This document shows positions 8,878 through 14,506 of a stretch of 14,506 bases of DNA, in pieces; the stretch's first letter is position 1, and each line of letters opens with the position of its first letter. Both the position numbers and the translations under genes were made by a program. The notes under the pieces were generated by a model. The model worked only from the letters and a program-made list of their open reading frames with translations, searched no databases and was not told the origin of the DNA. Source of the stretch: Eledone cirrhosa (lineage: Eukaryota); NCBI GenBank assembly GCA_964016885.1, contig CAXHJY010000820.1:1-14506 (forward strand). The letters are read 5' to 3'.

Positions 8878-9239
8878 GTAAGTCTTATACATGGCACACC
8901 TGTCTAATATATTTGTGCCACTATTACACACTTCCTTTTTCAAGACCTACAGATTAGGATGGGCATCAGTAAAGCAGGCATTTTTTTTTTACAGATATTA
9001 AAAATAATTTCTTTTTTTAAATATATAAAAACATTTCCTTCTGGTTATCTACACCTTCAGTTCAAATCTTATTGAAGCCAAATTTGTTTTTCAATAAAGC
9101 ATCCAGTAGTAGGGTCGATTCTGCACTCTCTCTCACCCCGTGGAAGAAATCCGCTATAGTCAAATCTATAGAGGGAAGTTTAAAATGCCCAAGTTACACT
9201 GGTACACATACAACATGGGATCAATGATTAGTGATTTCA

Positions 9240-9700
9240 TGTTGGTGGTGTTATTGGTGAAGAGGGTGTTGCTGGTGTTGTTGTTAGTGGTGTTGGTGGT
9301 GTTGTTAGTGATGTTGGTGTTGTTGTTAGTGATGTTGGTGTTGTTGTTAGTGTTGTTGTTCGTACTGGTGTTGTTGGTATTGGTGTTCGGTGTTGTTTGT
9401 GTTGGTTGGGTTGTTGGTGTTGTTTGTGTTGGTGTTGTTGTTGGTATTGGTGTTGTTGTTGTTGGTATTGGTGTTGTTGTTGTTGGTATTGGTGTTGTTG
9501 TTGTTGGTATTGGTGGTGTTGTTGGTATTGGTGTTGTTGATGTTGTTTGTGTTGGTATTGGTGGTGTTGGAAATGTTGGTGTTGTTTGTGTAGTTGTCAG
9601 TTGTAGATAGTGGTGTTGGTATTGTTGTTGTTGGGGATAATGTTGGTGTAGGATGTGTTGTTGTTGTTAGTGTCGTAGTAGGTGGTGGTGGTAGTTGTGG
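9240..9700. repeat. (GTT/GGT)n low-complexity repeat with GTTGTTGTTGTTGGTATTGGT-type subunits
   Basis: Directly visible. It yields poly-V/L and poly-N/T ORFs. Confidence 0.93.
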
Positions 9701-11765: not shown

Positions 11766-12140
11766 ATACCAAATTTCTAATAAATGATACTTCCTATGAT
11801 TTACAAATAACTTTGTAAAGAATCAAGGATTTGGAAGGATTTAGTAATATAACTAACTTTCTCACTATTAAGCTGGTGTTTTGAACATAACAGATATTTA
11901 GATAAAATTAAAACACAAGCAGCATCCTCGTGTAAGAAATATGACTATAAATGGTTAATGTTGTTATTATTGAGATTGTTGTTGACATATATATATATAT
12001 TAGGATTGGTGCCCTGAAATAGCGATGTATACATGAATGTATGTATAATATATTTGGCAATATACCATATGTTTAATTAAAAACATTTTGGAGACCTTGC
12101 GTTATCATTTTTAAAGTAGTGACTATGTCACTTACTTCTT

Positions 12141-12231
12141 TTTTCGGCAAAAGAAGGGAGAGAAGCTGACAGATTCTGTTTCACGCTGTTGGCGATCCTC
12201 AGAGCATCGTACTCCCTGCCTCTGCCGAAAA
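12141..12231 (-). ncRNA. Type I hammerhead ribozyme (left arm, minus strand); predicted cleavage between 12168 and 12167
   Basis: Exact reverse complement of 12286-12376. Confidence 0.88.
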
Positions 12232-12285
12232 TTATAGAGGCTGGATTCTTATAGAATTCCAGTAAGAATCAGGAACTGATTATAA

Positions 12286-12376
12286 TTTTCGGCAGAGGCA
12301 GGGAGTACGATGCTCTGAGGATCGCCAACAGCGTGAAACAGAATCTGTCAGCTTCTCTCCCTTCTTTTGCCGAAAA
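12286..12376 (+). ncRNA. Type I hammerhead ribozyme (right arm); predicted cleavage after GUC at 12349
   Basis: CUGAGGA (12315-21), stem II U-CGC-CAACA-GCG-U, GAAA (12335-38), stem III ACAG-AAU-CUGU, C17 at 12349. Stem I is GAUGCU/AGCUUC, then a UAC/U internal loop, then a 20-bp distal helix 12286-12305 with 12357-12376. Confidence 0.88.
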
Positions 12377-12505
12377 AAGAAGTAAGTGATATAGTCACTA
12401 CTTTAAAAATGATAACGCAAGGTCTCCAAAATGTTTTTAATTAAACATACGGTATATTGCCAAATATACTATACATACATTCATATATATATATATATGT
12501 ATATA

Positions 12506-12549: not shown

Positions 12550-12754
12550 TGTATATATATGTATACATACATACATATATATGTATACATACATATATAT
12601 GTATACATACATACATATATATTTAATTTGTTGGAAATCCAACAAATATAGATGTTTATAACTGATTCAGAGCACTCAACAGATTTCTGGAGTAAGTATT
12701 CAATGATATTAAATAAATGGCAACTATATTTATAAAACCATATTTATTCTATTC

Positions 12755-12910
12755 GGACGCCATGCTTTCCAGCATAGTTACGTCCCCTTACGATCTGAGT
12801 TCAAATCCCGCCGAGGTTGACTTTGCCTTTCATCCTTACGAGGTCGTTAAAATAAAGTACCAGTAATGCACTGGGTAATTGCTGGCCTTGTGCCTAAAGT
12901 AGAAACAATT
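12755..12910 (+). mobile_element. tRNA-derived SINE (5'-truncated) with a Meta-domain-like core
   Basis: A Pol III B-box-like GAGTTCAAATCC at 12797-12808 is followed by GACTTTGCCTTTCATCCTTACGAGGTCGTTAAAATAAAGTACCAG, which resembles the MetaSINE core as I recall it. Confidence 0.7.
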
Positions 12911-12960
12911 ATATATATTTCAAGGGTACCAAACATTTTGGTACGCTATCATCAGATAAA
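12906..12960 (-). ncRNA. Hammerhead-like motif with intact core but weak or truncated stem I
   Basis: Minus strand reads UUUAU-CUGAUGA-U-AG-C-GUACCAAA/AUG/UUUGGUAC-C-CU-U-GAAA-UAUAUA-U-A-AUUG. It has an 8-bp perfect stem II core and a palindromic stem III AUAUAUAU. The 3' strand of stem I runs into the SINE end. Confidence 0.55.
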
Positions 12961-13035
12961 ATACAAAATGTTTTATAAATATTTGACATGACCAAGGATA
13001 ATATACCTTAATGGTTCAAGTTATCCCTGGAAAGT

Positions 13036-13364
13036 GTATATATATATATATTATTATACATACATACATATATATGTATACATACATATATGTATACATA
13101 CATACACATATATGTATACATACATACATATATATGTATACATACATACATATATATGTATATATACATACATACATATATATGTGTACATACATACATG
13201 TCTATATGTATACATACATATACATGTATACATACATATACATGTATACATACATATATATGTATACATGCATACATATGTATACACACATATATTTGTA
13301 TGTATACATACATATATATGTGTGAGTATACATATATATGTGTGTGTATATATATATATACATA

Positions 13365-13406
<42 letters not shown>
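13036..13406. repeat. Compound (TACA)n/(TA)n microsatellite
   Basis: Directly visible. Confidence 0.96.
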
Positions 13407-13410
<4 letters not shown>

Positions 13411-13783
13411 TTTGTGGTTTTCATTTGTTTTTTTTATTGTTTTTTTTTTTAGAGTGAGTCATCTGTAGAAGGTTCATGATGAAAAGAAGGGAAAGAAGAC
13501 TTGATATGGGAAAGAAAGAAAGAACAGCAAGCAATTAAGGAACCAACAGCAACAACAATGAAAATTAAAAGCAATGAAGAGGAGGAAGGAGGAAGAGATA
13601 CTGGGGAAGTGAGGAGGTTCAGAAAGATAGAAAAGATGAAAGGCAAGCTAGAGAGGAGAACAACAACAACAACAACAACAAATACAAGATGGGGAGAAAG
13701 GGGAGACAAACAAAAACAAAAAAAACAACACACAAATATTGTATAACTTCAAACTCCTTCCCGCCATTACAATTCCTACCGAT

Positions 13784-14506
13784 ACTACCACCTTCACTAC
13801 CACTATAACAAGTCCCACCGCGACTACTACTACATTTAGTACCACTACTATAAGTACCACTGCTACTACTACTTCCACTACCACTATAAGAAGTCCCACC
13901 ATGACTACTACTACCTCTAGTACCACTATTACAAGTACCACTGCTACTACTACTACTACATTTAGTACCACTACTACAAGTACCACCACTACTACTACTT
14001 CATTTAGTACCACCACTACTACTACTTCATTTAGTACCACTACTACAAGTACCACCACTACTACTACTTCATTTAGTACCACTACTACAAGTACCACCAC
14101 TACTACTACTACATTTAGTACCACTACTACAAGTACCACCACTAGTACTACATTTAGTACCACTATTACAAGTACCACTACTACTACTACTTCATTTAGT
14201 ACCACTACTACAAGTACCACCACTACTACTACTACATTTAGTACCACTACTAGAAGTACCACCACTAGTACTACATTTAGTACCACTATTACAAGTACCA
14301 CTACTACTACTACTTCATTTAGTACCACTACTACCAGTCCCACCGCTACTACTACTACTTCTACTATATTTAGTACCACTACTACAAGTCCCACCGCTAC
14401 TACTACTATATTTAGTACCACTACTACAAGTCCCACCGCTACTACTACTACTTCTACTACATTTAGTACCACTACTACCAGTCCCACCGCTACTACTACT
14501 ACATTT
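13784..14506. repeat. (ACT/ACC)-derived minisatellite, unit about 39-45 bp (TTTAGTACCACTACTACAAGTACCACCACTACTACTACT..), running off the window
   Basis: The recurring TTTAGTACCAC anchor is directly visible. Confidence 0.93.

Follow-up and report, generated by a model that had tools for sequence, protein, structure and literature searches.

Results

A type I hammerhead motif and its antisense twin

The window analysed here is a whole 14.5-kb contig from a 3.0-Gb genome, and it carries on the plus strand, at 12286..12376, a type I hammerhead ribozyme (HHR) motif recognised by base-by-base parsing and by covariation across genomic copies. All features named in a preliminary description of this stretch were found in place: GUAC followed by six nucleotides and CUGAGGA on the 5' side, C17 followed by six nucleotides and an unpaired U on the 3' side, and loop II CAACA. 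Distal helix I comprises 20 positions (5' strand 12286..12305, partner 12357-12376; parse and compensatory changes), including one C.U (12299/12363) and two G.U oppositions (12297/12365 and 12295/12367). The 5' bulge UAC after G12305 (12306..12308) is U-R-C across the family, with UGC in 29/59 and UAC in 19/59 copies. It leads into the 6-nt 5' strand of proximal helix I (12309..12314; parse and counts at pair 1.6), which pairs with the 6-nt 3' strand at 12350-12355 and contains a second U.U (12311/12353), absent from the preliminary description. The core segment C3-A9 (CUGAGGA, 12315..12321), polymorphic only at N7 (G in 36 and U in 19 of the 59 copies), precedes stem-loop II (12322..12334; parse and covariation), in which U12322.U12334 at position 10.1:11.1 is followed by C-G, G-C and C-G pairs and the loop CAACA (12326-12330). 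The core residues G12, A13, A14 and A15.1 (GAAA, 12335..12338; parse and family conservation) open into helix III, an 11-nt near-palindrome (12338..12348; 4 bp and an AAU loop) with a calculated energy of -0.5 kcal/mol as a hairpin and -10.6 kcal/mol as a homoduplex. By the parse and the established rule for HHRs, the predicted cleavage site lies after C17 of GUC (12349), that is at 12349..12350.

The core CUGANGA, GAAA and UH thus surrounds three helices, with helix I open, as in type I HHRs; the G10.1-C11.1 pair, usual but not obligatory in this type, is missing in the window copy and replaced by U.U. A strict HHR descriptor matched twice in the window and in 0/300 dinucleotide shuffles. The fold z-score is -2.69 on the plus and -1.52 on the minus strand. 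The minimum free-energy fold of the isolated motif lacks helix III, and the helix probabilities, for the HHR alone or starting from the spacer, are 1.0 for distal helix I, 0.48-0.76 for proximal helix I, 0.52 for helix II and 0.19 for helix III. At the level of sequence, a genuine hammerhead RNA motif of type I, probably of the Sm-alpha class, is confirmed, and cleavage is predicted.

The type I hammerhead from S. mansoni has GUAC-N6-CUGA spacing and a C...A loop II, and a Schistosoma-like tertiary contact had been proposed for the window motif. The bases that such a contact would need are present: as in the Sm-alpha HHR described in passages of PMC2553840 and PMC6155905, a bulged helix I faces loop II, and both the final A of loop II and the U adjacent to residue 1.6, which Chi et al. 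2008 describe as a conserved Hoogsteen pair (excerpts of PMC2553840), are each retained in 58/59 copies, so that the unpaired U at 12356 (+) is the predicted Hoogsteen partner of A12330. The proposed geometry does not carry over in full. Loop II has 5 nt, whereas the numbering to L6 in PMC2553840 implies 6, the bulge is U-R-C rather than a fixed UAC, and G10.1-C11.1 is not fixed (7/100 of the core matches listed).

The second descriptor match, which the preliminary description did not mention, is an identical twin HHR on the minus strand (12141..12231; descriptor and sequence comparison), with its predicted cut between 12168 and 12167. Both HHRs lie within a 212-bp inverted repeat (12025..12492; parse and fold) with a 44-nt spacer (12237-12280) and a hairpin energy of -377 kcal/mol, the arms of which (12025-12236 and 12281-12492) differ by 5 mismatches, none inside the HHR. 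By comparison with the ~320-nt repeat unit characterised below, the right copy (12281..12484, plus strand) is 5'-truncated, covers unit positions 85-287, and has a 3' end of type A followed by (AT)n; the left copy (11999..12284, minus strand) covers positions 37-321 and has a 3' end of type B with a 34-nt tail, followed by (AT)n at 11987-11999. The two meet in a head-to-head junction with a 4-nt TATA overlap (12281..12284). The window locus is therefore two 5'-truncated unit copies joined head to head. Since (AT)n extends beyond both ends (11999 and 12484), a target duplication is unreadable here.

Several other features were seen in the window. The stretch 12753-12918 is a very common interspersed repeat, present in many of the loci examined, which resembles a tRNA-derived SINE. 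Low-complexity tandem arrays with Thr/Ser-rich open frames occupy 9200-9700 and 13650-14506, and large arrays of (AT)n and of (ATAC)n are found at 600-2300 and 13030-13430.

Hammerheads of this kind escape Rfam

Searches against Rfam returned no hammerhead match for the whole window at E<=1 or for the HHR region at E<=10, and no HHR at the gathering score in five sibling loci. A sibling with G10.1-C11.1 gave a weak match to Hammerhead_1, scoring 14 bits at E 0.95 where the gathering score is 34. Hairpin-type miRNA models did match, and were rejected, as these matches arise from the long hairpin and from AT repeats. More than 1,000 HHRs of this kind in a single genome thus escape Rfam.

A ~320-nt repeat family with two fixed 3' ends

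Genome-wide searches found 211 exact cores with the helix III of the window copy, 792 exact matches to an anchor 3' of the HHR and, over all subfamilies, 1,109 exact-core matches; reversed-pattern controls gave 0 each time. The unit is 320 nt long, non-coding and 36.6% GC, and has z = -5.7 relative to 100 shuffles when folded as a circle, in agreement with what defines a retrozyme unit (150-450 nt, GC below 50%, non-coding, highly self-paired).

Ends and arrangements were surveyed in 100 listed of the 792 anchor matches, all on contig C1 and representing 85 distinct loci. In these listed matches, 85/100 segments stop in two windows, at unit positions ~287 and ~321; 44 ends are of type A and 41 of type B, 34 nt apart, and nearly all are followed by (AT)n. 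None of the 100 listed segments has its 5' end at unit 153/154, the cut site, where a copied cleaved linear RNA would start, and 86/100 continue through that site. Apparent 5'-end peaks at unit positions 116 and 176 were rejected as largely subfamily divergence from the reference. Head-to-head pairs are present at 47/85 of the loci from the matches listed. Thirteen of the 47 had at least one unclassifiable end; of the 34 classified pairs, 31 combine one A with one B end (p = 4e-7 at 0.5). The inversion junctions differ from copy to copy over the 85 loci.

A segment longer than 320 nt occurs in 46/85 and one of more than two units in 1/85 of the loci from the matches listed. In the loci examined, the two longest uninterrupted stretches measure 645 and 669 nt, and none exceeds ~2.1 units. 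Tandems with two HHRs are found at L024, L132, L141 and L178, and the head-to-tail junction is also present in contigs of runs X1-X3 (one sample); a long tandem array was not seen among the loci examined, whereas typical retrozymes reach multimers. At L015 (1746-3021), 28 nt from within the unit (positions 249-284) have been amplified next to an insertion, giving a minisatellite that exceeds 1 kb. We found no paper on this ~320-nt family in the open literature; the supplements of PMC7229834 and PMC4209133 may list cephalopod HHRs, and excerpts of an octopus repeat annotation (PMC13282606) do not mention ribozymes.

RNA-level selection on the ribozyme

RNAalifold returned zero consensus pairs for an alignment of 59 full-length HHRs (the window copy and 58 of 84 rows, after removal of those that were truncated, deleted or duplicate), and the structure was therefore set by hand from the window copy and then counted on the alignment, with 500 shuffles that ignore relatedness. 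Paired cells amount to 89.8%, compared with 85.3 in shuffled alignments (reached in 0/500) and 45-50% in slid controls, and the covariation score is 0.210 compared with 0.128 (0/500). Cells with a double change, part of the covariation check put forward in the preliminary description, number 117 against 44.9 in shuffles (0/500). The number of pairs with a double change (12 versus 9.0; 28/500 shuffles) and of further pair types (212/500 shuffles) was not significant. The double changes include pair 10.2:11.2 (U-A 30, C-G 25 among the 59 copies) and pair 1.6 (U-A 42, G-C 13). G-C/A-U and C-G/G-C switches in the distal helix fall at alignment columns 27/114, 28/113, 33/108 and 34/107; helix I and II pairs switch between G-C, A-U and U-A, and helix III is without double change.

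Homologues had been expected to conserve the core, and they do: 24 of 90 columns are polymorphic, none of them among the 12 fixed core columns (p = 0.018). The polymorphic core positions, N7 and N17, are the two known to be free. Position N17 is C in 111, U in 15, A in 3 and G in 3 of 145 copies (13 unparsed), and whether it is C or U differs between subfamilies. The two distal G.U wobbles of the window copy had been read as a sign of RNA-level selection, and the family makes this argument far more strongly, with 108 G.U against 43 A.C cells in the 59 copies. With covarying helices and 12 core columns that hardly change next to a variable N7, the family shows that selection acted on an RNA hammerhead; these alignment counts support RNA-level selection on a type I HHR, probably of Sm-alpha class.

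U.U at 10.1:11.1 and the palindromic helix III

The preliminary description regarded two traits of the window copy as atypical. The first of these, U.U at 10.1:11.1, is in fact one of three states in the family: a hand count over 100 listed of the 1,109 core matches gave A-U 54, U.U 36, G-C 7 and other 3, and among the matches listed of the 211 cores position 10.1 is A in 74 and U in 26. It also occurs in a second retrozyme-like family (see below) and has been published. Perreault et al. describe a natural U10.1-U11.1 and give it as the best-tolerated mispair (passages of PMC3088659), and according to sections of PMC7229834 the axolotl HHR_Amex2 has U.U, its monomer cutting 22% in 1 h and its dimer much better. 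The AU test spoke against U.U having arisen only once (p = 1e-10; 58 rows, stem-loop II masked, the long-branch L108 left out), for a U.U group that was named after the first tree was seen, and well-supported branches force at least 3 changes at this position. Recombination between subfamilies could be an alternative source of the non-monophyletic U.U. We regard U.U as a tolerated state that probably lowers activity and has been repeatedly exchanged with A-U and G-C.

The second family was seen at L155 and L156 (G000:C4:375778000-375794900), in tandem units of 426-438 nt that are unrelated to the ~320-nt unit. Each of its units carries a canonical type I HHR with U.U at 10.1:11.1, a 6-nt loop II, A17 and a perfect 6-nt palindromic helix III; Rfam missed these HHRs.

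The second trait, the near-palindromic helix III, is no more unusual, as a short palindromic helix III is the rule in canonical metazoan type I HHRs according to passages of PMC4209133 and the Fig. S8 legend of PMC3088659. Helix III variants of 9, 10, 11, 12 and 13 nt were found, in which the centre changes and self-complementarity is kept. Calculated energies range from +2.1 to -1.8 kcal/mol for the hairpins and from -6.9 to -13.6 for the homoduplexes (9-12-mers), and a modelled double hammerhead reaches -37.6, compared with -28.0 for two monomers (9.6 kcal/mol lower). Given such weak hairpins, stable homoduplexes and a lower-energy double hammerhead, dimer-enhanced cleavage is likely in these models. 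The same figures, the self-complementarity of the main helix III variants despite altered centres, and the 86/100 listed copies that were reverse-transcribed across an uncut site would also fit a stricter reading, in which the ribozyme is an obligate dimer like the minimal PLE (Penelope-like element) hammerheads and a single HHR copy does not cut. We consider this rather doubtful. Self-complementarity is a property of every short hairpin, and the helix III variants derive by indels from a single ancestral palindrome rather than being independent cases; helix III here has 4 bp, next to tertiary-contact bases and a 20-bp covarying distal helix that favours local folding; and HHR_Amex2, with its U.U and a shorter helix III, cuts as a monomer to the extent given above (sections of PMC7229834).

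The proposed likeness to PLE hammerheads that cleave as dimers holds in part. Like the minimal PLE HHRs described in portions of PMC4209133, the window motif is type I, has a palindromic helix III region and sits in PLE-type insertions. However, the further features given there (a helix II that is long, a helix I that is short, one additional base following A9, conserved G10.1-C11.1, no tertiary contacts) do not apply here, and a minimal PLE hammerhead identity was rejected by parsing the motif against that text. Moreover, since the two HHRs of the window lie on opposite strands, neither a cis dimer nor a cis double hammerhead can form from them. A minimal PLE-type hammerhead with a long helix II, a TA-palindromic helix III and the 3' side cut short was seen elsewhere in the window (12905-12961, minus strand, core start 12955); L003, L009 and L028 also contain the stretch 12908-12987, and L151 has a related motif.

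A probable retrozyme family with Penelope-type insertions

According to passages of PMC8557442 and PMC3846280, PLE insertions have a 30-40-bp tail at just one of their ends, together with a 5'-truncated copy in inverted orientation and a (TA)n bias, and excerpts of PMC11167929 describe two internal RT starts and extension of both target strands. The ~320-nt family has the same structure, with two 3' ends 34 nt apart, a tail on one arm, a head-to-head partner and a microsatellite target. It differs from autonomous PLE insertions in its repeat period of 320 nt and in having no RT/endonuclease ORF; the unit as an autonomous Penelope-like element was rejected because there is no RT and GIY-YIG ORF between pseudo-LTRs. 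As in the animal non-LTR retrozymes of Cervera and de la Pena 2020, exemplified by axolotl Rtz353 (sections of PMC7229834), a canonical type I HHR resides in a 150-450-nt, low-GC, self-paired, non-coding head-to-tail unit; Rtz353 with HHR_Amex2 likewise has U.U at the base of helix II, a weak helix III and co-existing autonomous PLEs. In contrast to Rtz353, the present family was seen as scattered copies that span ~2 units at most and frequently have an inverted partner, with no long arrays seen, and its helix III is longer. We assign the repeat, on these sequence features, to the animal non-LTR retrozymes as a previously undescribed family. Very probably, the motif serves as canonical type I hammerhead in a family of ~320-nt non-LTR retrozymes that are non-autonomous and presumably mobilised by a Penelope-type enzyme.

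A young PLE is very abundant in this genome (33,784 first-look candidates, of which 150 were scored at 93-100% identity). By motif inspection, its loci L148-L162 carry ORFs of up to ~818 aa with RT and GIY-YIG motifs, and they show a minimal HHR in the pseudo-LTR, partial tandems, inverted 5' copies, two 3' ends ~90 nt apart and (AT)n flanks. The 818-aa ORF gave no Pfam match at E<=0.1 and no meaningful PDB match, so the label Neptune-type, which we presume from clade features, rests on these and on motif inspection. No similarity to the ~320-nt unit was detected in 15 regions around long-ORF copies, and this PLE is therefore a mobiliser candidate only.

Every insertion mark of the family is a PLE mark, a 2026 preprint gives retrozymes of Xenopus as homologues of pLTRs, and ~145 of the more than 1,100 copies were inspected. 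One could accordingly view the unit as a mere pseudo-LTR stump of an autonomous Penelope-like element, with the HHR as a passenger. This is improbable: 66/85 of the loci from the matches listed wrap across the unit boundary into the unit (a count that includes overruns of a few bases), 46/85 exceed one unit, a shared ORF-bearing flank was not seen in the loci examined, and the PLE that was examined is dissimilar to the unit and carries an HHR of another, minimal kind.

The window locus is probably an inactive copy

When both arms were folded in one transcript, the probabilities of all HHR helices fell to 0. Since the 212-bp hairpin of a read-through transcript abolishes the HHR fold, the window locus is, judging from these folding models, probably an inactive two-armed insertion copy with both HHRs buried in dsRNA. 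The near-perfect hairpin, and the variants that are rare elsewhere and common to both arms, might suggest that the locus is important in itself, its hairpin giving rise to small RNAs by which the family is silenced, which we think very unlikely, as 47/85 of the loci from the matches listed share its architecture, nothing singles it out, and the shared variants are explicable by a single template or by inter-arm conversion. Least credible of all is a DNA hairpin (MITE-like) element or a chance motif with no RNA function: Rfam gives only hairpin-type miRNA models and the locus is a large inverted repeat, but the 108:43 excess of G.U over A.C, the invariant core with variation at N7 and N17 only, and 0/300 matching shuffles speak against it, and inversion junctions that vary between copies mean that there are no fixed terminal inverted repeats.

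Discussion

In this study we have described a family of retrozyme-like repeats whose copies may record a retrozyme life cycle. In the cycle that we envisage, a source locus of at least two head-to-tail units would be transcribed, and the HHR, as in the retrozyme literature, would cut after C17, releasing a unit that is then circularised. Cleavage would use G12 as base and G8 as acid, with the U-A Hoogsteen contact joining helix I to loop II, and would proceed at modest rates in the monomer and at better rates in a double hammerhead with merged helix III. A putative Penelope-like RT/GIY-YIG protein would then nick both strands of an (AT)n target; the observed pattern of ends suggests priming at two internal sites that are fixed and separated by 34 nt (~287 and ~321), followed by copying through the uncut HHR, often beyond one unit. 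The head-to-head arrangement of the copies is observed, and two cDNAs might be joined in this way by microhomology. The window would be one two-armed insertion of this cycle.

We put forward only tentatively the full proposal that the family records a life cycle in which a Penelope-type enzyme copies a circular HHR RNA, priming on both target strands, each from its own fixed site on the RNA, and passing through the ribozyme while it is uncut, and in which the successive subfamilies amount to a natural survey of how the hammerhead is tuned (at 10.1:11.1, and in a helix III of 9-13 nt). If it is true, the ribozyme would be held at a strength low enough for circles to persist and high enough for tandem transcripts to be cleaved. 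HHR cleavage was not required for insertion in vitro (excerpts of PMC11167929), and 8/9 retrozyme dimers did not cleave in the 2026 preprint.

The enzyme that mobilises animal retrozymes is still a proposal. PLEs are called 'a strong candidate' in sections of PMC7229834, and the 2026 preprint offers phylogenetic support in frogs for PLE mobilisation and admits to little life-cycle evidence. Here, a retrozyme with a canonical HHR bears the full PLE insertion signature. As U.U and a palindromic helix III were already known, the ribozyme features by themselves are ordinary; what is new is the insertion signature at the level of a family together with a natural series of HHR variants, a modest but real addition. 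The subfamilies provide matched natural variants at 10.1:11.1 (U.U, A-U and G-C) and in helix III length for comparing monomer and dimer cleavage, and the fixed priming sites are testable in the existing in vitro PLE assay. As a separate observation on the ends, the last ~14 bases of the type B end in the window (11999-12012) loosely resemble the distal second 3' end of the abundant PLE (CACC..TCCTA..AT), as seen in L153, L154, L159 and L162, which may reflect a shared priming signal or chance.
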